From IMG/VR virus record IMGVR_UViG_2529292886_000008: DNA of 30,609 bases, one strand, 5' to 3'. A program made the translations under genes and the position numbers. This document shows positions 5,811-30,609 of this stretch, piece by piece. Every line of letters begins with the position of its first letter. Position 1 is the stretch's first letter. This DNA comes from a virus (taxonomy: Duplodnaviria; Heunggongvirae; Uroviricota; Caudoviricetes). The notes beneath the pieces are model-generated. The model was given only the letters and a program-made list of their open reading frames with translations. It did not search any database and had not been told where the DNA came from.

Positions 5811-8633
5811 ATGACGGCAGAGTACATCAGGGACTGGCAACAACCGCGCCACGCAGTGGGGCGTGAAGGAACGGGGATCCCCGCTCCTGAATCCGCGCTT
5901 TCCTCCTGGCTGGATGCCTACCGGGTAGAGAACGAGCGCCGCCAGGAAATGGCTGATGCGGCGTTCTCCGCAACGCCGCTGGGCAACCTGATTAATAAAA
6001 GCCTGGACGCACAGGAAAAACAGGACAAAACCATCACACTGGCAGGAGACGCCAGAAAACAGGCACGCGGTGCGGTGGATGAAGCCATGGCCTCGCTGCG
6101 CCTGCTGCCGTCCTATCTGCGCGATCCGCTTATTCGCCACCTCTCCTTCCTGCGCAAAAAACAGGAAGCCGATCGTCAGAAAGGCAAAAAGAGCTGGCAG
6201 GCTGAACGCTACGCGCGCGGAAACCTGCGCAAAATATTCGAACGTCTGGAGCGCACCGATCACCGCTGGCTGACACAGGGTTATCGCTCCCTTGCCGGAC
6301 GCGAACGCCTGGACGATTTGCTTTACCTGCCGCAGCTCAACAAACACCAGATACAGACGCTGGCCACCATGACGGCGGCGATGTTCAGCAGCACCTTCGA
6401 AAAACTCTGCGATGGCTTTGGCGCGACCGATGGCGAACTGACCATGGATGTAACGCTGAAGGCGTATCAGATGCTGGCCCGCATGGCGTTACACCTGCAC
6501 GCCATGCCTCCACATTATGACGCACTGACAACAGACAAAGACCGGAGGAACGAACCGGACACGGAGCTGCTGCCGGGCGCAATCCTTCGCCTGACCTGTG
6601 CGGAATGGTGGAAACGCAAACTGTGGCTGTTACGTTGCGAGTGGAGAGAAGAACAACTCCGCGCCGCCTGTCTGGTTTCCAGAAAAACATCGCCCTATCT
6701 GAGCCAGGACGCGTTAAGCGAGTTTCGCGCACAGCGCGAGAAAACACGCGATTTCCTGAAAAGTTTCATGCTGGAAAACGAAGACGGGTTCACGATTGAT
6801 CTCGAGACAGTGTATTACGCGGGAGTAAGTAACCCGGTTCACCGTAAGGCAGAAATGATGGCCACCATGAAGGGGCTGGAACTTCTGGCCGAAGCCCGTG
6901 GCGACAAAGCGGTGTTTCTGACTGTCACCTGCCCGTCAAAATACCACGCTACAACAGAGAACGGTCATCCGAATCCCAAATGGAACGGGGCCACCATGCG
7001 CGACTCCAGCGATTACCTGGTTAACACGTTTTTTGCGGCGGTCCGCAAGAAACTGAACCGCGACGGCCTGCGCTGGTATGGCATCCGCACGGTGGAGCCT
7101 CACCATGACGGCACCGTGCACTGGCATATGATGGTCTTTGCTCATCCGGAAGAAATCGACACCATTGTGTCCCACACCCGCGATATTGCCATTCAGGAAG
7201 ATCGTCACGAGCTGGGCGATGATATTACTCCGCGCTTTAAGGCGGAGTATGTCGACGGCTCAAAAGGCACGCCAACCAGCTACATCGCCACCTACATCGG
7301 AAAAAACCTGGACAGCCGCGCCGTGGATGGCATCGACCCGAAAACAGGCAAACCACGCGTTGACCACGAAACCGGAAAATCAATGACCGAGAGCGTGGAA
7401 CGCGCCATTGGCTGGGCGCGCCTTCACCGGGTCCGCCAGTTCCAGTTCTTTGGCATCCCCTCCCGTCAGGTGTGGCGTGAACTGCGTCGCCTTGCCAGCC
7501 AGATGGCACGCAACCCGGAAGGCCCGCAACGGCTGAAGGATGACGCAATGGATGCGGTTCTTGCTGCCGCTGATGCCGGATGTTTTGCCACCTACATTGA
7601 GAAACAGGGAGGCGTACTTGTTCCACGCAAGGACTACCTGATTCGCACCGCCTACGACCTCGCAGATGAGCTGAACGATTACGGCGAACAGAGCGTACAG
7701 ATTTACGGGATCTGGTCACCACTCATCGGGGAATCCTCCCGTGTGTGCACGCACCCGGATAACTGGAAGCTGGTAAGACGTAAACCGGGAGTAGAAGACA
7801 GCGCCCGCGAAAATGGTTTTGACCTTCAGGGCGGCCCTGCCGCCCCTTGGACTCGTGGCAATAACTGTCCCCGTGTACAGGAAACGGACAACAACGGGAC
7901 AGAACAGCCGGAAGAACGGCCAGCACCGTGGCCGCAGCTTCCTGACGGCGTTGACGTGAACGAATGGATGCGCTCACTGAAACGGCACGAACGCCGGGCG
8001 CTGATGCGTTCGCTTCGTGACAAACAGGCAAAAAACAGCAGTGATGAAATGCAGAGCTGGACACAGAGCCGCAAACAGCAGCGGCCTTTGCCTGATAACC
8101 ACGAATTACTCGCTAAAGAATGGCGGGAGTCTGCTGAATCTCTCGGCCTGCATATCGGTGAACAACAGATGCAGCACCTGTTACGGGGCGGCAGTCTGTA
8201 CGTTGACGGCAGCATCATTGCACCGCAGGGATTTGAAATTGTACGCAAACCGGATACCCGCCCGGACAGCCGAATCACGCAGCTCTGGCAGCGCCTGAGC
8301 CGTAATCATGGCGTAAGCAGCACGGAGATCCGCCATAACCCGGTCGCCAGCTATCTGGCACAGCTGGGGGCATCAGACCCTGAAGCCGCCGCACGCCTGG
8401 CATCCACACTTCAGCAGGACCAGAACACCATGAAAACACCCGTTACCGTGCTTTCTGACATGCTGCGCGCCATCCGCGACGCAGAGCACGCACAGAGAAT
8501 CAGTGAAACCACTGAACGCGCCAGCCGCAAAGCAGACCTGCTGCGGGGTGGCCTGACCAGTGGAAACAAAAAACAGACAGAAACGGGACTCACAAATCCC
8601 GTAAATGAGCAAAAAACGCGCCGCGATATATGA
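5811..8633 (+). CDS. A: Rolling-circle replication initiator endonuclease (P2 gpA / phage_GPA family), 940 aa
   Basis: HUH-like motif TVHWHMMVF and paired catalytic tyrosines in TSYIATYIGKN. Large size and position at end of early operon. Long charged C-terminal extension. Confidence 0.85.
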   Translation: MTAEYIRDWQQPRHAVGREGTGIPAPESALSSWLDAYRVENERRQEMADAAFSATPLGNLINKSLDAQEKQDKTITLAGDARKQARGAVDEAMASLRLLPSYLRDPLIRHLSFLRKKQEADRQKGKKSWQAERYARGNLRKIFERLERTDHRWLTQGYRSLAGRERLDDLLYLPQLNKHQIQTLATMTAAMFSSTFEKLCDGFGATDGELTMDVTLKAYQMLARMALHLHAMPPHYDALTTDKDRRNEPDTELLPGAILRLTCAEWWKRKLWLLRCEWREEQLRAACLVSRKTSPYLSQDALSEFRAQREKTRDFLKSFMLENEDGFTIDLETVYYAGVSNPVHRKAEMMATMKGLELLAEARGDKAVFLTVTCPSKYHATTENGHPNPKWNGATMRDSSDYLVNTFFAAVRKKLNRDGLRWYGIRTVEPHHDGTVHWHMMVFAHPEEIDTIVSHTRDIAIQEDRHELGDDITPRFKAEYVDGSKGTPTSYIATYIGKNLDSRAVDGIDPKTGKPRVDHETGKSMTESVERAIGWARLHRVRQFQFFGIPSRQVWRELRRLASQMARNPEGPQRLKDDAMDAVLAAADAGCFATYIEKQGGVLVPRKDYLIRTAYDLADELNDYGEQSVQIYGIWSPLIGESSRVCTHPDNWKLVRRKPGVEDSARENGFDLQGGPAAPWTRGNNCPRVQETDNNGTEQPEERPAPWPQLPDGVDVNEWMRSLKRHERRALMRSLRDKQAKNSSDEMQSWTQSRKQQRPLPDNHELLAKEWRESAESLGLHIGEQQMQHLLRGGSLYVDGSIIAPQGFEIVRKPDTRPDSRITQLWQRLSRNHGVSSTEIRHNPVASYLAQLGASDPEAAARLASTLQQDQNTMKTPVTVLSDMLRAIRDAEHAQRISETTERASRKADLLRGGLTSGNKKQTETGLTNPVNEQKTRRDI

Positions 8634-8674
8634 AGCGCGCACAAAACAGGCAAAAGCGGGATTTAAAAATCCTG
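8583..8674. promoter_or_regulatory. Inverted repeats upstream of parM; candidate ParR operator / centromere-like site
   Basis: ACGGGA-N8-TCCCGT at 8583-8602 and GGATTT-AA-AAATCC at 8659-8672, the second just upstream of the parM RBS (AGGA near 8699). The first lies inside the 3' end of gene A. Confidence 0.3.
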
Positions 8675-8709
8675 TAACCGATTAATTAATCAACATAAGG
8701 AAAAGCGAC

Positions 8710-9669
8710 ATGAAAATTTGTATCGACGACGGCTCCACCAACATCAAGCTGGCATGGACTGAGAACGGCGAACGCCGCAACGCCATCAGCCCGAACAGCT
8801 TCAAGTCGGAATGGTCTGCGCCATTCGGTGGCACGCAGCCCGCGAACTACATGCTTGATGGCGTGCGCTATAGTTTTGATCCGGTCAGCGATCGCTTTGT
8901 CCAGACGACCGACACGCAATACCAGTACAGCGATGTGAATGTAATTGCCATTCATCACGCGCTGGTCAAATCAGGCATCACACCACAGGAAGTGGATGTG
9001 GTTGTCACCCTGCCACTGAGCGAGTATTTCGATACAAACGCACAGCCGGACATGGCCAACATCAACCGCAAAAAAGCGAACGTCATGCGCCCGGTGGAGT
9101 ACCAGAACGGCGAAGCATTCACTATCCGTAACGTACGGGTTATGCCTGAATCCATTCCTGCTGGCTTTAAGGCACTGGCTGACATGAGTCCGTTTGAATC
9201 CCTGCTGATTGTGGATTTGGGCGGAACCACGCTGGATGTGGCAAAGGTTCAGGGGCAACTGGCAGGTATCAGCCAGGTGTTTTGCGATCCACACGTAGGC
9301 GTTTCTCTGATGGCCGATGCCGTACTGTCGGTGATGGCCACTAACGGTATGCGCACCAGTCACCACATCGCCAATACCATTATCGAACATCGCCATGATG
9401 AAGCCTGGCTGCGCCAGCACATCCACAATGACGCGCATTACGCCAGCCTGATGGCGGTTATTCGTGAAAAGGAAGAAACACTGAAACAACGCGTGATCCG
9501 CGCGCTGGCGGTTTTTTCGGGTTACGGGCGGGTGATGGTTGTCGGTGGCGGGGCGGAGATTGTGGCAACCGCTATCCGCGAAGCCTGCGGAGTTAATGCG
9601 ACTTTCATCGCGGACGGGGTGCCACAGTTTGCTCTGGTTAATGGGTTGTACGCAATGAACAAGGAGTAA
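8710..9669 (+). CDS. parM: Actin-like segregation ATPase ParM/StbA
   Basis: Phosphate-1 motif ICIDDGSTNIK, phosphate-2 LIVDLGGTTLDV, adenosine motif VMVVGGGAEIV. Overall pattern closely matches plasmid R1 ParM as remembered. Confidence 0.85.
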   Translation: MKICIDDGSTNIKLAWTENGERRNAISPNSFKSEWSAPFGGTQPANYMLDGVRYSFDPVSDRFVQTTDTQYQYSDVNVIAIHHALVKSGITPQEVDVVVTLPLSEYFDTNAQPDMANINRKKANVMRPVEYQNGEAFTIRNVRVMPESIPAGFKALADMSPFESLLIVDLGGTTLDVAKVQGQLAGISQVFCDPHVGVSLMADAVLSVMATNGMRTSHHIANTIIEHRHDEAWLRQHIHNDAHYASLMAVIREKEETLKQRVIRALAVFSGYGRVMVVGGGAEIVATAIREACGVNATFIADGVPQFALVNGLYAMNKE

Positions 9670-9673
9670 ACCA

Positions 9674-9988
9674 ATGACGACACCAACCAGACGGATAAGT
9701 TTCTATCTGAAGCCCGCCGCCGTCAAGAGTGAACAGGAGGCGTGCAATTACCTCGATAGCCTGCCAGCCTCCGAACGCAGCCGCGCGCAACGCGCGGCCT
9801 TTCTGGCTGGGCTAGCACTCATAAAGCGCAACCCAGCATTTGCCTACTGGATGGCCGAATGGCCAGAGGACAACCTCCCCTTCAATACCGTTAGCATCAA
9901 GGAAACATACCAGGCTAATCAGCCTAGCGGAGTTGAATGCAATTTTTATAAAATAAAAAAGAATATTCAGACCTTATTCCCAGAATAA
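9674..9988 (+). CDS. parR: Partition adaptor / repressor ParR (StbB-like)
   Basis: Immediately downstream of parM; segment RISFYLKPAAV..CNYLDSLPASERSRAQRAAFLAGLAL matches ParR N-terminal ribbon-helix-helix region from memory. Confidence 0.7.
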   Translation: MTTPTRRISFYLKPAAVKSEQEACNYLDSLPASERSRAQRAAFLAGLALIKRNPAFAYWMAEWPEDNLPFNTVSIKETYQANQPSGVECNFYKIKKNIQTLFPE

Positions 9989-10037
9989 TCTGATAATTGT
10001 ATGTGAACTAATAAAATACATACCAACACATCATTCT

Positions 10038-10059
10038 GGCACCCTTGCAACAGGGTGCC
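10038..10059. terminator. Hairpin between convergent parR and membrane-protein operon (possible bidirectional terminator)
   Basis: Perfect 8-bp stem GGCACCCT / AGGGTGCC with 6-nt loop; no strong U-run on either side. Confidence 0.4.
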
Positions 10060-10070
10060 AATGTTTCAAA

Positions 10071-10913
10071 TCATGATGAAATTGCCGAAGTTTTTTTATC
10101 GTGCTGAAGTACCGCAAATGCCATTAAAACCTCAAGAGAATAGCGGCGATAATACTTAACAAAACCATAATAAAATACTCGGGATGCAGCAAGACAAAAC
10201 AAGAGAAGAAAACAAAAAGGTAACAGCCTGATATTTATATCTATTAAAAAGGATAGAGGGAACAGACATATAAGCAACCAGACTGAAGCGAGAAAAACAA
10301 ATGTAATGTTTCTACAAAAACCATACAAAGCAACATAGTTTTGCATTTTCACCTGATGATTTTTAGAATGCTCATACACATAATGATAAGCAAGGCGAAA
10401 AAGATCGCCCCTCAAGCCCTTACGTCGATATAGCGTAGATACAGAAAAAACATTTATATAACCATCTCGTATTTGCGGCCAAAAGACTTTAATAAGTATA
10501 GAATGCAGTGTGGTTTTATGATGTTCTGCTTTATCAAAAACTGATACAGGAAGTAGAAAAACTCCACGAATAAAATGAACTATACTGAACTTAGTATTAT
10601 GTCGTTTTATTTTCAGGGGACTTCTTTTAGAAAACAGATAAATTGAAGGATACCCAAGTTTACTGTTCATATATTTTTCAATTAAACAGGATGATAGAAT
10701 AGATATGAAGTGACCTGAAATATATGACAGAACAATTAATACCACATATATAAACACACTTATTATTTCTTTATATTTCAGGATGTGGTTAAAAACACCT
10801 TCTATATAAACAGGGTTAATTTCAATAGAAAACAAAAAAAGGATAAACAGGAATAACCCACCTGGAATTAGATAGCCCAAAAAGTCATAAAATGAAAACG
10901 GATTCTGTGTCAC
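10071..10913 (-). CDS. Multi-pass inner-membrane protein (280 aa), uncharacterised; distal gene of candidate cargo module
   Basis: Long ORF in strongly AT-rich DNA, where random long ORFs are unlikely. About 4-5 hydrophobic helices. Start overlaps the stop of the upstream gene. Confidence 0.7.
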   Translation of the reverse strand: MTQNPFSFYDFLGYLIPGGLFLFILFLFSIEINPVYIEGVFNHILKYKEIISVFIYVVLIVLSYISGHFISILSSCLIEKYMNSKLGYPSIYLFSKRSPLKIKRHNTKFSIVHFIRGVFLLPVSVFDKAEHHKTTLHSILIKVFWPQIRDGYINVFSVSTLYRRKGLRGDLFRLAYHYVYEHSKNHQVKMQNYVALYGFCRNITFVFLASVWLLICLFPLSFLIDINIRLLPFCFLLLFCLAASRVFYYGFVKYYRRYSLEVLMAFAVLQHDKKTSAISS

Positions 10914-11449
10914 ACTTCCCCCTGTGTTACTTGTAAATTAAAGGGTAAAACATTATTTGTTTTCCGTAAAGGATTAGCTTTCCATCTTCTTACTAACCAT
11001 TCGAATTCTTGATATGTAGTATCCGAATTAATGCTTTCTCTGATTGCTTTAATTAATGGCTCGGCAATATCATATGTCTCTACAACTGTTGTGTAAGATG
11101 TTCTTTTTATCATTTTTTCATCATAAATACCTTCACGAATACTTACAGCAACTCGCTCGTAAAAATTTAAAATATATTGAAATTTTCGACGCTCGGCCAT
11201 TTCCTCATCTGTTATTGTACAACCATCACAAGGAAAAACATAAGAACGAAATGATTTGCCTGAACGATGCACTTGTTTCAGGGTATGCAATGACTCTATA
11301 TATTGCATATCTTGCCGACTCTCAAAAAGAAAGTTAGCCGTTTGAGTTTTCTTTGCGGTACGCACATTGTAGATAATGGTTCCAATGGCAACCAAAACGC
11401 CAAGCAGAACAATAGCATTGCTGATGATTTGTAGTGTTATTGGGTTCAT
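10910..11449 (-). CDS. Single-pass N-terminally anchored membrane protein (179 aa), uncharacterised; proximal gene of candidate cargo module
   Basis: N-terminal TM helix (ITLQIISNAIVLLGVLVAIGTIIY) followed by soluble domain with paired Cys (FPCDGC). AT-rich; overlaps downstream gene by 4 nt. Confidence 0.7.
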   Translation of the reverse strand: MNPITLQIISNAIVLLGVLVAIGTIIYNVRTAKKTQTANFLFESRQDMQYIESLHTLKQVHRSGKSFRSYVFPCDGCTITDEEMAERRKFQYILNFYERVAVSIREGIYDEKMIKRTSYTTVVETYDIAEPLIKAIRESINSDTTYQEFEWLVRRWKANPLRKTNNVLPFNLQVTQGEV

Positions 11450-11463
11450 CCTATTTCATCCAT

Positions 11464-11490
11464 AAAAAAGGCGGGGAGCAAATCCCCGCC
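11464..11490 (-). terminator. Rho-independent terminator for leftward transcription, abutting start of cargo operon
   Basis: 8-bp GC stem GGCGGGGA / TCCCCGCC with GCAAA loop, followed on the minus strand by a T6 run (plus-strand AAAAAA at 11464-11469). Confidence 0.5.
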
Positions 11491-11639
11491 TCATTAGAGG
11501 TCAACGTAGCTTAGAAACCATCAAATTCATCATACATTTTTTTCATATCAACCCCCTCATAGAAATCATAACCACGTTTTGTGGTTTTTGTGACGCATAA
11601 ACTACATCAAAGGCAAGCTACGGTCAAATATATGGGCAT

Positions 11640-11810
11640 GCTTACCTGCACAAAAGTGCACAAATTTGCACAATTTTTTTGAACGACTTTTTGCCCTTCC
11701 GGCCCGCGTGGCGGCTGGATCCGTCAGGGATCCGTGCGTGCACAAAAAAACGCGTTTTTTCTGCGCGCAGGTGACGGGGGAACAGCCCGCGTTTCAGGGG
11801 GTAAATAGCA
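11640..11810. other. Probable cos / packaging-site region (by synteny), repeat-rich
   Basis: Non-coding block downstream of portal gene as in P2. Three TGCACAA copies at ~10-11 bp spacing (11646-11680), GGATCCGT direct repeat (11718-11737), perfect palindrome AAAAAACGCGTTTTTT near 11747-11762. Exact cohesive-end sequence not verified. Confidence 0.3.
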
Positions 11811-12046
11811 TTCCATGAACGATGTCGCAGCGACACAACAGAATGGCTGTATTTCTCACACTGAGCGTGAAAAAGACGTGAGGGCTTTTGATTTGATGGG
11901 GTGACAGATAAGGCAGTCAAAATCGCACTGAGGCGGCAAGAACATGCAGTCAACGCGGTGGGATTGCGTAAGAGCCTGATCGTCGATGATGGCGATAAGC
12001 TGGAAGACGTCGTGAAATTATCTGATTGATACAGGAGCTGGAGAGT

Positions 12047-12071
12047 CGGGGCATAAATTTTTTATGCCCCG
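12047..12071 (-). terminator. Stem-loop downstream of portal gene (terminator candidate for leftward P-Q operon)
   Basis: CGGGGCATAAA / TTTATGCCCCG 11-bp inverted repeat around a T-rich loop, about 27 nt after the Q stop. Confidence 0.4.
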
Positions 12072-12097
12072 GCGAAGCAGCAGACAAGCGAAGCGCG

Positions 12098-13144
12098 TCA
12101 GGATGTGGGCTGGGTGTCTAACAGTGCGTAAGGGTTAAAGCGGATCACCTCTTCGCCAAGCCAGTCATTGATGTGCTTCATGGCCTCCATGACGGGCATC
12201 AGCTCGTTAATTGCGTAAACCCGCGCGGCCTTCTCCACATCACCAAACGCACTTTTTTCGCCCGGCATCGCCCCCATCAGTTGCGGCGGAACGCGGTGCG
12301 CAGCCAGCACATCATCACGGGATGCCGCCTTAACATTCATGAACTCATCCTTTGCGGTGATCTGCTGGAACGGCAAAATTTGCACACCTTCTTTGCCCCC
12401 GTTGGGCGCATGGATGAGCACGTTTTTAAACGCACCACCACCACGCGCGCCCTGTAACGTTTCTTTCAGGGAGTCCATGCTTTCGCGGTTTACCTGCGCT
12501 GCACCAATGTAGATGATGCACCCGGCGTGGGATCCGTTGTCGTAGTACAGTTTTCTGAACATGTCCGCCGAATGAGAAAGGCTGGCCGAGAGTAATGCGC
12601 CAAGATATTCCGGCATGCCGTAGATTTCCTGGTTAATATCCGGATTCATCAGATGGCACACTTTACTAGGGCGAAACTGAAACGCGTCCTTGCCATCCTG
12701 CACATACCACCATGATTCAAGATCGCTTCCGCGTCGCATGTATTTCGCCAGGGCGTGCCGTAATTTAAGCGGTTCGCCGAGCATATTGCTTCGAAGCTCA
12801 AGGAATGCGTTACCGAACACAAACCAGTCCAGCGCCAGCGCCGAGAAATCCTGCCGGGAAAGCAGCGGGTGCGGGATGTAGCAACCGAGTAATACATTGC
12901 GCTTAAAGTAAAGCGCAGACTGATGCCAGGACGTTTGCCGGGCAGCTCTTGCCAGACCGTACCAGTCCACCGGGGTTTCATACCACCGCCCGTTATCAGC
13001 ACAGTACATGTTGTCCAGCAGGTCATGCCCGGTCAGGCGATAAGGACCATCAAATGTGAATGCACTGAGCGATGATTCTTTCCTGAGCGCATCAGCGAGA
13101 TCAATGCGTGAACTCATGCGTACTTTTTTATTTTTTCTGCTCAT
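12098..13144 (-). CDS. Q: Portal protein (P2 gpQ-like)
   Basis: 348 aa, size and position adjacent to terminase as in P2; overlapping stop/start with gene P. Confidence 0.85.
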   Translation of the reverse strand: MSRKNKKVRMSSRIDLADALRKESSLSAFTFDGPYRLTGHDLLDNMYCADNGRWYETPVDWYGLARAARQTSWHQSALYFKRNVLLGCYIPHPLLSRQDFSALALDWFVFGNAFLELRSNMLGEPLKLRHALAKYMRRGSDLESWWYVQDGKDAFQFRPSKVCHLMNPDINQEIYGMPEYLGALLSASLSHSADMFRKLYYDNGSHAGCIIYIGAAQVNRESMDSLKETLQGARGGGAFKNVLIHAPNGGKEGVQILPFQQITAKDEFMNVKAASRDDVLAAHRVPPQLMGAMPGEKSAFGDVEKAARVYAINELMPVMEAMKHINDWLGEEVIRFNPYALLDTQPTS

Positions 13145-18606: not shown

Positions 18607-18849
18607 GTGAGCACCATTCAAACAGGGATCACAGAGCAGGTTATTGCGTGGCTCTTTGACCACCTGCCAACGGTGTATGCAGTAGGCGCGGCGGTCAGCA
18701 TTTCCGCGCTGATGAGTCTTTATGACGGACGAACACTGGTTCAGACCGTAACGGGATCGCTGGCGTGCGGCGTTCTTGCCATGGCCGTGGCCGGGTCGTT
18801 GCGCTTCTTCGGGTTTCCTGAAGATGCCGTGACGTTTATCGGCGCATAA
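18607..18849 (+). CDS. Putative holin (P2 gpY position)
   Basis: GTG start with GGGGGA RBS 7 nt upstream; 80 aa with two hydrophobic helices; position preceding endolysin. Confidence 0.55.
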   Translation: MSTIQTGITEQVIAWLFDHLPTVYAVGAAVSISALMSLYDGRTLVQTVTGSLACGVLAMAVAGSLRFFGFPEDAVTFIGA

Positions 18850-18926
18850 ATCGGTTTTATGGGTGCAGAGAAAGCACGCGACAAGGTTATTGCGGCCTTT
18901 AATCGCAGGGTGAAGGAGAAGGACGA

Positions 18927-19319
18927 ATGAGCAACACATTTAAATTCAGCAGCCGGAGCGAAAAGAATTTGCAGGGCGTAAATCCTGATCTGGTGAAAGT
19001 GACCCGACGGGCACTGGAAATCTCGGAAGTGGATTTTGGTATCACCGAAGGGTTGCGCAGCCGTTACCGCCAGAAGCAACTTGTGGCCACGGGTAAGAGC
19101 CAGACCATGAACAGCCGCCACCTTACGGGGCATGCCGTGGATGTTGTGGCTTATATCGGCAGCCAGGTGTCATGGGAATGGCCGCTGTACGAAAAAATCG
19201 CAGCAGCATTCAGACAGGCCAGCCGGGAACTGAATATTCCGGTGGAATGGGGCGGCGACTGGAAGACCCTGAAAGACGGACCGCATTTTCAGTTACCGCA
19301 CGGAGTTTATCCGGCATGA
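18927..19319 (+). CDS. Endolysin, peptidase M15-type L-alanyl-D-glutamate endopeptidase
   Basis: Motifs SRHLTGHAVDV and DGPHFQL typical of M15 zinc peptidase endolysins; replaces the lysozyme-type gpK of P2. Confidence 0.75.
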   Translation: MSNTFKFSSRSEKNLQGVNPDLVKVTRRALEISEVDFGITEGLRSRYRQKQLVATGKSQTMNSRHLTGHAVDVVAYIGSQVSWEWPLYEKIAAAFRQASRELNIPVEWGGDWKTLKDGPHFQLPHGVYPA

Positions 19320-23306: not shown

Positions 23307-25466
23307 ATGAGTACCACAACACGAAAATTTAAAACCATTATCACTGATACTGGTGCCAAAAAATTAGCTCAGGCAGCCGCGCCAGATGGTAATCCTGTCC
23401 GCCTGACTCACATGGCCGTGGGCGACGGTGGCGGCACGTTGCCCACACCAGACAGTAAGCAGACCCGTCTGGTGCATGAGGTGTGGCGACATACTGTTAA
23501 TCGCGTCATCCTGGACGCAACACATCAGAACCGCATTATTGCGGAGCTGGTTATTCCTCCTGAAACGGGCGGATTCTGGATCCGGGAAATTGGTGTATTT
23601 GATGAGCACGGCGATTTGATCGCGGTGGGCAATACTGCCGAAAGTTACAAACCAACCGTTGCCGAAGGATCCGGACGTGCACAAACATTTCGCACCATTC
23701 TGACCGTATCCAGCACTGCCACCGTGGCGCTTACCGTGGATAACACCATGGTTATGGCCACAGTGGATTACGTGAATGACAAACTGAAAGAACATGAACA
23801 GTCACGACGTCACCCGGACGCCTCGCTGACCGCAAAAGGCTTTGTTCAACTCAGTAGCGCCACCAACAGCACGTCTGAAGCACTGGCCGCAACGCCGAAA
23901 GCGGTCAAGGCAGCCTATGACCTTGCTATCGGGAAATATACCGCACAGGACGCCACTACAGCGCGGAAAGGACTTGTCCAGCTCAGTAGCGCCACCAACA
24001 GCGATTCAGAAACGCTGGCGGCAACACCAAAGGCGGTAAAGGCAACATATGACCTTGCTAACGGGAAATATACTGCGCAGGATGCCACCACAGCGCGGAA
24101 AGGCCTTGTCCAGCTCAGTAGCGCCACCAACAGCACGTCTGAAGCACTGGCCGCAACACCGAAAGCGGTAAAGACAGCATATGACCTTGCTAACGGGAAA
24201 TATACCGCTCAGGACGCTACGACAGCACAAAAAGGGATTGTCCAGCTAAGCAGCGCGACTAACAGCGCATCTGAAACGCTTGCTGCGACATCGAAAGCAG
24301 TGAAAGCAGCTAATGACAATGCGAATGGTCGGGTACCTTCTGCCCGTAAGGTGAATGGTAAGGCGCTTTCAGCGGATATAACACTGACACCGAAAGATAT
24401 TGGTACGCTTAACTCAACAACTATGTCATTCAGCGGTGGTGCTGGTTGGTTCAAATTAGCAACGGTAACCATGCCGCAGGCGAGTTCTGTTGTTTCAATT
24501 ACGTTGATTGGTGGGGCTGGATATAACGTCGGTTCACCTCAACAGGCAGGTATATCTGAACTTGTTTTGCGTGCAGGTAATGGTAATCCGAAGGGGATTA
24601 CTGGTGCTTTATGGCAGCGCACATCGGCAGGGTTTACAAATTTTGCCTGGGTCAATACATCTGGTGATACTTACGATATTTACGTTGCAATCGGAAATTA
24701 TGCGACTGGTGTAAATATTCAATGGGATTATACCAGTAACGCCAGCGTAACGATTCATACTTCACCAGCATATTCTGCTAATAAGCCGGAAGGATTAACG
24801 GACGGTTCTGTTTATTCGCTGTATATTTCGCCTCATGAACTTTATCCGGTTGGCGCACCGATCCCTTGGCCATCAGATACCGTTCCGTCTGGTTATGCCC
24901 TGATGCAGGGGCAGACTTTTGACAAATCTGCATACCCGAAACTTGCAGCCGCTTATCCGTCAGGCGTGATCCCTGATATGCGTGGCTGGACGATTAAGGG
25001 CAAGCCCGCCAGTGGTCGTGCCGTATTGTCTCAGGAACAGGACGGCATTAAATCGCACACCCACAGCGCCAGCGTATCCAGTACGGATTTGGGTACGAAA
25101 ACCACATCGTCGTTTGATTACGGGACGAAAACAACCTCACTATTTGACTATGGGACCAAAACTACCAGTAACGCCGGGAGTCACACGCATTCAATACCAA
25201 CATCAGATGGTGCAAACCAGGGGGGGAAAATTCCACTGACATCTGGGCGTCTGGCAACTCAATATACATCAGCAACAACAGGTTCCTCTGGCTCACATTC
25301 TCATACTGTAGGTATTGGTTCTCATCAGCACACTGTCGGTATTGGTGCACACACGCACTCGGTTGCGATTGGCTCACATGGACACACCATCACCGTTAAC
25401 GCTGCTGGTAACGCGGAAAACACCGTCAAAAACATCGCATTTAACTATATTGTGAGGCTTGCATGA
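23307..25466 (+). CDS. H: Tail fibre protein (P2 gpH-like) with internal fibre repeats and HxH-rich C-terminal tip
   Basis: N-terminus [25 protein letters not shown] typical of gpH; C-terminal [11 protein letters not shown]; four 44-aa repeats; HxH motifs near C-terminus. Confidence 0.9.
23838..24340 (+). repeat. In-frame tandem repeat, about 3.8 copies of a 132-bp unit, inside tail fibre gene H
   Basis: Repeat starts at 23838, 23970, 24102, 24234, encoding G(F/L/I)[33 protein letters not shown](R/Q)K. Confidence 0.85.
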
Positions 25467-26365
25467 TTACGCTCATTCTTTCTGCACCAGTAACAGAAAT
25501 GGCTGAAGCATTTAAGCGGGTATTTGCAAACGCAGATAATGTGAATATTGTCGGAAAGCCATTTGAAACAATCAGAGAATTTGACTGTATGGTAAGTGCG
25601 GCAAATAGTTTCGGCCTGATGGATGGCGGTGTTGATGCCGCCATTACCGCATTCTTCGGTACTCAGTTACAGTCCCGCGTTCAGAATCATATTCTTCGTG
25701 AATATCTAGGCGAGCAGCCTGTAGGATCTGCGTTTGTTATTGAAACGGGGCATAATCATCACCCCTGGCTGGTACATGCGCCAACAATGCGTGTTCCGCT
25801 GACAATTGACGGAACAGACGCTGTATATAACGCAACCTGGGCCGCTCTGCTTGCCATCTTTCAGCACAATAAAAACGCAACGACAGACAGGAAAATAAAG
25901 ACGGTGGTATTCCCTGCGATGGGGGCTGGATGTGGTCAGGTACCGTTTGAAAGTGTTGCCCGCCAGATGAAGCAGGCCTGGGATAACTTTAATAAAAAAA
26001 CAGAATCAATTAACTGGGAATACGCACAATCCCGCCAGTCGGCAGTATTTGGCACATATGCATACTGTCCGGGTAATTCTGTTTGCCGTTATGCGGATGC
26101 TAAATATATTGGATGCGGCGATTATCGGACGTATTGCTCACGTTCCGGGCAGGTCTGTATTAACCCTGAACATCAGGCTGATGATGTACTGATACAACAT
26201 CAGGCTAATAACCGGTTTCGCCCTGATTCGCATATACACCGGATTAATCCAGAAAATCCCGTAGGTAATGTCACCTCTGGCGCACATAGCCACAGAAGTA
26301 GCATCGTTATTGGTGCTCACACCCATACGCTCAATAAACAATATTCTGTCTCTGATATTAAGTAG
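25463..26365 (+). CDS. Macro-domain (ADP-ribose binding/processing) protein with Cys-rich and HxH-containing C-terminal region
   Basis: Macro motifs [18 protein letters not shown] and [15 protein letters not shown]-terminus [18 protein letters not shown] resembles HxH repeats in the upstream fibre tip; ATGA overlap with H stop. Confidence 0.75.
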
Positions 26366-26367
26366 AG

Positions 26368-26952
26368 GTGAACATGGATTTCAGAATGAGTGAACAACCA
26401 CGGACCATAAAAATTTATAATCTGCTGGCCGGAACTAATGAATTTATTGGTGAAGGTGACGCATACATTCCGCCTCATACAGGTCTGCCAGCAAACAGTA
26501 CCGATATTGCACCGCCAGATATTCCGGCTGGCTTCGTGGCTGTTTTCAACAGTAATGAGGCATCGTGGCATCTCGTTGAAGATCATCGGGGTAAAACGGT
26601 TTATGACGTGGCTTCCGGCGACGCGTTATTTATTTCTGAACTCGGTCCGTTACCGGAAAATGTTACCTGGTTGTCGCCGGATGGAGAGTGTCAGAAGTGG
26701 AACGGCACATCCTGGGCGAAAGATGCAGAAGCAGAAAAACTGTTTCGGGTACGGGAGGCAGAAGAAACAAAAAACAGCCTGATGCAGGTAGCCAGTGAGC
26801 ATATTGCGCCACTTCAGGATGCCGTAGATTTGGATATTGCGACGGAGGAAGAGGCATCGTTACTGGCTGCATGGAAGACATATCGGGTATTGTTGAATCG
26901 TGTTGATACAACAGTAGCAGCGGATGTTGAGTGGCCAGTCGCCCCACAATAA
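26368..26952 (+). CDS. G: Tail fibre assembly chaperone (P2 gpG / Tfa-like)
   Basis: 194 aa; N-terminal region [39 protein letters not shown] typical of the Tfa family; GTG/ATG start at 26368/26374. Confidence 0.8.
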
Positions 26953-26995: not shown

Positions 26996-27568
26996 CTATT
27001 TATACAATACAACACCACTCTTTTTAGTTATATATGTGCAGTTTGATGGTATATCTTTATTTATAAAAGACATTGCACCTATTTTTACATTATCCCCAAT
27101 TTTACGTGATAATCCAATGATGCAACAATTAGCTCCGATATCAACGTTACTACCAATTTTTACTCTTGAACTAGGCATATCACCATCTATCTGTCCAATG
27201 GTAGTATTCTGTCGTAATACCAGATTTTCACCCGCATCAACAGCAAAATGAACAACAATTCCAGCATGATGGGGAATTGTCAACCCTTTTCCAATATTTG
27301 CGCCCAATCCTATTTCACAACCAAACTTGTTAATTATTTTACTGTTTAACTTTTTGGCTGCTTTCTTATGTAATTTATTACCATTAATATACATTTCGTT
27401 AGCCAACCGCCACCAGAAAAGGAAATTCCGGTTACGCTGCTTTTTCTCTCTTAAAAGCCTCCAGATATCCATACGTTTCCGCCGAATTACTTCATGTTTC
27501 CAGAAGTTTTTTAAATTAGTAGAGTTTCCAAATAAAACAAAGTGAATTGCCATTAAGTAAGATAGCAC
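26996..27568 (-). CDS. Hexapeptide-repeat (left-handed beta-helix) acetyltransferase, CysE/WcaB-like; lysogenic-conversion-type cargo
   Basis: C-terminal hexapeptide repeats (GCEIGLGANIGKGL..IGSNVDIGANCCIIG..IGDNVKIGAMS). Strongly AT-rich. Preferred start is the GTG at 27566-27568 with a perfect AAGGAG 6 nt upstream; the open frame extends to 27601. Confidence 0.75.
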   Translation of the reverse strand: MLSYLMAIHFVLFGNSTNLKNFWKHEVIRRKRMDIWRLLREKKQRNRNFLFWWRLANEMYINGNKLHKKAAKKLNSKIINKFGCEIGLGANIGKGLTIPHHAGIVVHFAVDAGENLVLRQNTTIGQIDGDMPSSRVKIGSNVDIGANCCIIGLSRKIGDNVKIGAMSFINKDIPSNCTYITKKSGVVLYK

Positions 27569-27724
27569 GATAATCTCCTTAATTATTATTTCAGACCACA
27601 CATGTTATAAGGTTAAGAGATTATAAAATCCTGTTATTTGTTATTCAAAAACAATTTTCTGAGAAGGACATACAACAGCAAGTCGCCAGTCACCTTCATC
27701 AGGAAATTGGCGACATACGTTAAA

Positions 27725-30439: not shown

Positions 30440-30609
30440 AAAACGCCCGGCAGCATAGCCGCCCGCCGCTGCCGCACCAATTGCCAGCGCACCACCTGTT
30501 TTCAGTTTTCCCGCGGTTTCCTGCGCGTGCGAATACTGAACCGCCCCGGAAATCCTGGAGACTAAACTCCCTGAGAAAGAGGTAAACAGGATGACTAAAA
30601 ATACTCGTT

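Follow-up and report, generated by a model that had tools for sequence, protein, structure and literature searches.

An intact actin-type partition pair in the backbone of P88-like phages, carried here by an insertion-sequence-damaged chromosomal prophage

The 30,609-nucleotide DNA of IMG/VR virus record IMGVR_UViG_2529292886_000008 (the whole stretch is referred to below as the window) carries, directly after the replication gene A of a P2-like phage, an intact parM-parR pair encoding an actin-fold partition ATPase and its adaptor. In this study, it was found that the pair (parMR) is an invariant backbone module of the P88-like (P2-family) phages, and its sequence relationships indicated that it is an old, vertically inherited resident of that lineage. 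The window element itself is a decaying, chromosomally locked prophage damaged by insertion sequences (IS), and not a plasmid. We put the probability at roughly 60% that the pair acts as a ParMRC-type system on the transient circular phage genome, by segregating or positioning the circles. Both the cassette and a plasmid-maintenance interpretation of it are already in print: Rousset et al. 2022 (PMC9122126) described a 'putative plasmid partitioning system' in about one quarter of P2-like prophages and guessed at plasmid maintenance. The cassette and the sequences that precede it comprise the following features.

5811-8633, plus strand: replication gene A, an HUH rolling-circle endonuclease of 940 amino acids in a lineage-specific long form, directly 5' of parM
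8567-8604, plus strand: first copy of a 38-nucleotide repeat, with the palindrome ACGGGACT-CACA-AATCCCGT at 8583-8602; candidate ParR site, parC-like
8640-8677, plus strand: second copy of the repeat, with the palindrome GCGGGATT-TAAA-AATCCTGT at 8656-8675; candidate ParR site or operator
8710-9669, plus strand: parM, actin-fold partition ATPase, 319 amino acids, intact (Pfam, structure alignment)
9674-9988, plus strand: parR, ribbon-helix-helix-type adaptor, 104 amino acids (Pfam, similarity to R1 ParR)

The product of parM matched the Pfam domains StbA_N (E=6e-83) and ParM C-terminal domain (E=3e-69), and the structure of ParM from plasmid R1 (1mwk) aligned with it from end to end at 47% identity (E=2e-93). 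The segments DDGSTNIK, MPESIPAG, DLGGTTLD and GGGAE aligned with the corresponding R1 positions, and the phosphate-1, connect-1, phosphate-2 and adenosine motifs of a type II partition ATPase were all present. The full actin-fold signature of ParM, which a sequence-only reading of the window had assigned to this open reading frame, was thereby borne out. The same reading had placed a ParR-like adaptor after parM, and this assignment also held: parR starts 4 nucleotides past the parM stop codon, in the downstream adaptor position of type II systems, its product matched Pfam PF10784 (Plasmid_stab_B; E=8e-29), and residues 1-63 were 40% identical to R1 ParR (E=4e-16). The profile search proposed as a check on that reading therefore matched both proteins. 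Similarity to the pB171 ParR structure 2jd3 was weak (E=0.012). The R1 ParR query was verified by a 100% match adjoining parM in more than 1000 plasmids. The PGAP annotation and the phage records already name the two genes as ParM and partition protein. A proteome study of O157:H7 (PMC3210124) was considered as a source on ParM and rejected, because its matches to 'ParM' were author names only.

Among the related loci, which were drawn mostly from IMG/VR, ParM was intact at 319 amino acids in 84 of 84 and ParR was intact in 81 of 82. The ParR alleles shared 48-98% identity, and the variation was unevenly distributed along the protein. The N-terminal domain (residues 1-66) was conserved and its strand RRISFYLKP invariant across alleles, while the two helices after this strand fell into two allele families and the linker (residues 67-93) was hypervariable. 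At the other end, the C-terminal peptide (K/A)(K/G)NI(Q/R)xxFPE was again conserved (KKNIQTLFPE in the window), and MAFFT placed it on the extreme C-terminus of R1 ParR, KKNAMKLIN. This C-terminus is reportedly the ParM-binding helix, as described by Gayathri et al. in 2012 for PDB 4A62. The phage protein would accordingly possess both functional ends of a ParR, and we infer from the alignment that it contacts ParM. An AlphaFold model of the ParR monomer was of low confidence (mean predicted local distance difference test score, pLDDT, of 58), with residues 66-89 disordered and a C-terminal helix at residues 90-101.

Upstream of parM, two 38-nucleotide direct repeats were found that are 79% identical and lie 73 bp apart, with one 20-bp palindrome in each. 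A search for ACGGGATT-N4-AATCCCGT with at most three mismatches gave 3 matches against 0.13 expected. The sequence-only reading had noted inverted repeats at 8583-8602 and 8659-8672; the first is present as described, whereas the second is only the inner part of the palindrome at 8656-8675. The coding sequence of gene A contains the first repeat copy among its final codons (stop codon 8631-8633), and the second lies within the 76-bp gap between A and parM, 34 nucleotides 5' of the parM ATG. Both copies are conserved in P88 and 569R5, and the first was also found in 78 related loci. The palindrome was confined to the two sites upstream of parM in L004, the complete genome of a relative. Moreover, the palindromes did not co-vary with the ParR allele type, phages with type-A and type-B ParR sharing the same sites, which fits an N-terminal DNA-reading strand that is invariant across the allele families. 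Among 44 haplotypes, 5 of 8 spacer positions of the palindromes were segregating, compared with 10 of 32 arm positions. No Rfam RNA family was matched at the parM leader. We regard ParR binding as the more probable role of these candidate sites.

The phage context proposed by the sequence-only reading, a P2-like phage, was supported by a P2-type gene order and by a gpA 98% identical to that of P88, which identify the element as P88-like (Xuanwuvirus); the gene order was read from the annotation of a 99.997% identical locus. Gene A at an identity of at least 80% occurred in exactly 14 phage records, and the cassette likewise in 14 phage records, all P88-like (P88, P884B11, phiSM, 569R5 and others), with 95-99% DNA identity. 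In P88 and 569R5, parM-parR follows directly after gene A, while the genes from parR to the portal gene differ. The next relatives of gene A, in Fels-2 and Klebsiella phages, were about 42% identical and lacked the last ~140 residues. The window segment 7900-8633 (gene A residues ~797-940) is an extension specific to the parMR-bearing lineage, the ~42% relatives aligning only to residue 796, and it is within this extension that the first candidate ParR site lies. The lineage-specific 3' part of A had 1533 places in complete E. coli genomes and the 1.4-kb cassette 1443 (~94%), the latter in 1303 of 5426 genomes (24%).

The parM gene has evidently been kept under purifying selection, as its segregating sites were concentrated at third codon positions (31, 20 and 140 at positions 1, 2 and 3). 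ParM was 95-99% conserved within the lineage, and the closest plasmid ParM was 53% identical. Since no ParM was found between 53% and 95% identity, the pair appears to have resided in the phage lineage for a long time; recent capture from a plasmid was rejected, as the same 53% figure argues against it. A scan of genome contigs for distant phage-borne relatives returned only 3 loci, all 97-99% identical. An intact, selected actin-type partition pair is carried within an integrating phage by roughly 24% of the complete E. coli genomes.

P2-type replication is begun by gene A, proceeds by rolling circle and yields monomeric circles. In the role that we favour, parMR would be transcribed with gene A as the distal end of the early/replication transcript, and its products would be made while the phage genome is extrachromosomal. 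Dimers of ParR would bind the two palindromes 5' of parM through the invariant strand RRISFYLKP, the C-terminal peptide KKNIQTLFPE would capture ParM filaments, and the filaments would drive copies of the circular extrachromosomal genome apart or position them. The system would act in the interval between infection and integration, once the phage has excised, and while it replicates; the outcome would be that the phage is lost less often when cells divide and that lysogeny is less often abortive after infection or excision, or that replication is organised. A consensus scan of 8300-12200 and 1500-8750 detected neither a sigma-70-like promoter upstream of parM nor a plus-strand terminator between A and parM, and parMR is for this reason probably the tail of the replication transcript. 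For P88 and phiSM, which are integrated temperate phages, inducibility or spontaneous activity is documented (PMC6456863).

Several observations weigh against this role. A simple consensus scan could miss a weak dedicated parMR promoter. The palindrome arms, with the 10 of 32 segregating positions given above, are no more conserved than the neighbouring intergenic bases (18 of 56) in the 44 haplotypes. The candidate centromere consists of only two separated palindromes, which no promoter-like site overlaps, whereas R1 has ten direct iterons of 11 bp arranged about a consensus promoter; with so few sites, that of the phage may be a mere operator or something else. The minus strand of both repeats resembles terminators composed of a hairpin and a U-tract. 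Finally, a 34.5-kb circular record in PLSDB, pZ1323PEC0009-2 (L004, NZ_CP148288.1), was deposited as a plasmid but represents a whole P88-like phage, and occasional carriage as an episome is therefore conceivable.

The resemblance to terminators raises the alternative that the 38-nucleotide repeats are not a centromere and serve instead as tandem intrinsic terminators for leftward transcription, or as structure in the mRNA at the A/parM junction. Leftward terminators would shield gene A against antisense transcripts reading through from the cargo region. Each hairpin has a U-rich tract after it on the minus strand, the terminator scan called one of the two, and the repeats folded markedly more stably than shuffled sequences, with z scores of -4.0 and -5.1 for the minus strand and of -3.0 and -4.6 for the plus strand; the greater variability of the spacers is likewise what a loop would permit. 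However, the repeats lie directly 5' of parM, where the centromeres and operators of type II systems are located, the palindrome was found nowhere else in the L004 genome, and the substitutions in the second copy of the window break the minus-strand pairing. We regard this alternative as unlikely, and the roles of terminator and centromere are in any case not mutually exclusive.

The genes downstream of the pair form a variable hotspot between A and Q, which starts inside parR at about codon 18 (window 9728-9988, and downstream in loci L002-L090). At this point identity to P88 falls from ~97% to ~55% and lower. The 74 loci compared contained 18 downstream clusters, which begin within parR and reach the portal gene. 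The ParR allele family and linker variant were tightly linked to the type of cargo, each of the 18 clusters having one ParR type.

This neighbourhood bears on a further alternative, in which lysogens express the cassette as an accessory (moron) function of the A-Q hotspot that, for example, excludes or destabilizes incoming related phages or plasmids by centromere titration or mispairing, or benefits the host in another way. The cassette borders a defence hotspot already described for P2, the interval from gpA to gpQ (PMC9122126), and the highly polymorphic, cargo-linked 3' part of parR can go with conflict-driven diversification. Against this, the presence of parMR does not vary among near-identical phages as that of hotspot cargo does, ParM is 95-99% conserved, and the DNA-reading strand of ParR and the palindromes show no co-variation by allele type. 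Furthermore, PADLOC gave no match for ParM or ParR, and no promoter was detected. A moron function is consequently judged very unlikely. The sequence-only reading had allowed that the cassette might be stabilising cargo, which is unlikely for a pair that belongs to the invariant backbone while the variable cargo extends from within parR to the portal gene.

The same reading had suggested that the element may be maintained as an extrachromosomal plasmid-prophage, and had linked this to a nonsense-interrupted integrase. In its general form, this explanation holds that the cassette would let P88-like phages live as low-copy episomes, which the window element would do on account of its broken integrase. 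Elsewhere, a complete partition pair is a typical feature of episomal prophages such as D6, the 34.5-kb circular 'plasmid' record consists of an entire P88-like phage, and plasmid maintenance was the remark made by Rousset et al. 2022 (PMC9122126). The genomic evidence pointed the other way. Of the places of the cassette in complete E. coli genomes, 1441 were chromosomal and 2 were on plasmids, and one of these 2 was a prophage within a 129-kb plasmid; such counts speak against stable maintenance as a plasmid. A reconstructed attP junction of the window's integrase type was found in 0 of 5426 genomes, the search giving only partial matches of the attL type or the attB/attR type. Gene A is the sole replication gene and lies in an early region that a repressor would silence, and no plasmid-type Rep is annotated; the replication module consists of the P2-type gene A endonuclease only.

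The att sites that were proposed as a check were found in a near-identical copy. A prophage of E. coli O157:H7 PV15-279 was 99.997% identical to window positions 72-29988 and has the order integrase, repressor, early genes, A, parM, parR, two cargo genes, Q (portal), P (terminase), O, N, M, L and tail genes. It is inserted between yecA and the leuZ-cysT-glyW tRNA cluster, at the tRNA-Leu gene leuZ, and is flanked by attL and attR, a 121-bp direct repeat with one mismatch that takes in the 3' part of tRNA-Leu; its integrase is intact (333 amino acids), and an intact tyrosine integrase was found in relatives. By the condition for refutation that accompanied the sequence-only reading, an integrated element with intact attL/attR and a functional integrase, the plasmid-prophage idea fails. 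The only lineage exception to the lack of an autonomous extrachromosomal lysogenic form, and the sole hint in favour of the idea, is the 34.5-kb circular record, which may represent either a circle produced on induction or a rare episome. That record comes from an E. coli isolate of a cat and carries the integrase, Cox, parMR and a hok gene.

The integrase of the window is indeed disrupted, as had been read from the sequence, but by an inserted IS629/IS1203 and not by a nonsense mutation. The features concerned are the following.

About 1-75, strand not assigned: terminal inverted repeat end of IS629/IS1203 within the integrase gene, 100% identical to the IS in locus L005
75-538, minus strand: 5' part (~153 of 333 codons) of the phage integrase, truncated by the IS (sequence comparison)
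30537-30609, strand not assigned: other IS629/IS1203 end, truncating the tape-measure gene; the last ~70 bases match at 100%

After codon ~153 of 333, the integrase frame enters IS sequence, and the junction of int and IS was found as one continuous match in 0 of the complete genomes searched. The IS copies that flank the window also truncate tail genes, and in PV15-279 the tail sheath and tube genes are absent beyond the IS. Moreover, the holin gene (18607-18930, plus strand) has an internal stop, and the near-identical RefSeq copy also bears a pseudogene flag. An IS insertion in the integrase gene, accompanied by a second IS and a stop in the holin gene, is ordinary prophage decay. Both ends of the window are IS termini, one in the integrase gene and one in the tape-measure gene, which suggests a short-read contig broken at IS629/IS1203 copies. 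With the element placed in the chromosome, plasmid-prophage maintenance is most improbable, and the cassette of the window gives no evidence for a plasmid, the contig being a degraded piece of a chromosomal prophage between IS629 copies. In this crippled prophage, parMR is probably an intact passenger without anything to act on.

The cassette has parallels in known systems. ParMRC of R1/R100 (StbA/StbB), the paradigm of type II partition, has the same order of cis site (a candidate one in the phage), parM and parR. To the identities already given, over the full length of ParM with all ATPase motifs and over the N-terminal domain of ParR, is added the C-terminal KKNxxxL peptide of the phage ParR, which aligns with the ParM-binding tail of R1 ParR. 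The two differ in that the R1 system is on a plasmid and the phage cassette in an integrating phage, and in the length of ParR, which has 117 amino acids in R1 and 104 in the phage, the phage protein being without the R1 segment TTFSDIVNILRSLFPKEM. The P1-like phage D6 has a StbA-type pair, with a phage-borne ParM 48% identical to that of the window and a small downstream partner, but D6 is a genuine 91-kb plasmid prophage and its upstream iterons differ (TTCTCAA-type). The system of Rousset et al. 2022 and the partition genes annotated in P88, phiSM and P884B11 are the same cassette as that of the window, and the 24% of complete E. coli genomes found here agrees with their estimate of about one quarter. 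Nothing of substance differs, apart from the location of the window copy in an IS-disrupted O157:H7 prophage.

Two precedents with experimental support concern integrated elements. In SXT/R391, an actin-type partition system, SrpMRC, stabilises the excised form of an integrated element whose transient circle is replicated by an HUH-type rolling-circle enzyme, and srp is expressed with the mobilisation genes (Carraro et al. 2015, PMC4489591). The relationship of SrpM and SrpR to R1 ParMR is only a distant one, and SXT/R391 is an integrative and conjugative element, not a phage; the partition function is demonstrated for SrpMRC and inferred for the P88-like cassette. In the integrated Corynebacterium prophage CGP3, AlpAC/alpS comprises an actin-like filament and a DNA adaptor (Donovan et al. 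2015, PMC4446434). The alp genes are induced early, the adaptor binds sites 5' of its own operon, and both AlpA and AlpC are needed for efficient replication of CGP3 phage DNA (PMC4446434). AlpAC has an actinobacterial host and is of an unrelated actin-like lineage, and it is likened to the cassette by description. If the cassette moves or positions phage circles, the precedents of SXT/R391 and CGP3 would be joined by a phage family that is very common in enterobacteria, and this would help to explain how P2-like phages secure lysogeny. A more speculative extension, which we consider distinctly unlikely, is that ParMRC serves as a small 'mitotic' device for rolling-circle monomers, perhaps with a facultative episomal state and with incompatibility groups set by ParR. 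If true, delayed integration or the lack of an available attB could lead to a pseudolysogenic or carrier state, and the hypervariable, cargo-linked ParR alleles could define incompatibility among co-resident P2-like phages.

The remaining observations concern other parts of the window. The hotspot cargo at 10071-11449 (minus strand) consists of a DUF4760 protein (179 amino acids, Pfam 1.4e-34) followed by a 280-amino-acid protein. The latter gave a weak Csx27-like PADLOC match (4e-5), neither protein was called as a PADLOC defence system, and in the literature DUF4760 was mentioned by one unrelated paper only. By location, the two are candidates for an uncharacterised defence pair, which is a possible assignment. 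A further feature lies between the convergent parR and 280-amino-acid cargo genes.

10037-10060, strand not assigned: perfect 9-bp GC-rich hairpin TGGCACCCT/AGGGTGCCA

This hairpin is possibly the end of the parMR transcript, although the consensus scan did not score it as a terminator.

Between the integrase and the repressor, a DUF2511 protein (544-891, minus strand) and a 216-amino-acid hypothetical protein (921-1571, minus strand) occupy a second accessory slot. In the early region, 5' of gene A and parMR, Rfam matched the Hfq-binding small RNA isrK at 4882-4956 (plus strand, 63 bits) and the C4 antisense RNA at 4992-5079 (plus strand, 78.5 bits), just 5' of a 'derepression protein' gene at 5136-5366. 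This arrangement resembles a P1/P7-style c4-ant immunity module within a P2-family early region. In the tail-fibre region, a macro-domain protein gene (25463-26365, plus strand) comes after the tail-fibre gene, an Rfam match to the IS009 RNA was found at 26717-26915 (plus strand, 191 bits), and a serine O-acetyltransferase gene lies on the opposite strand at 26996-27601 (minus strand). These three are likely morons of the tail-fibre region.

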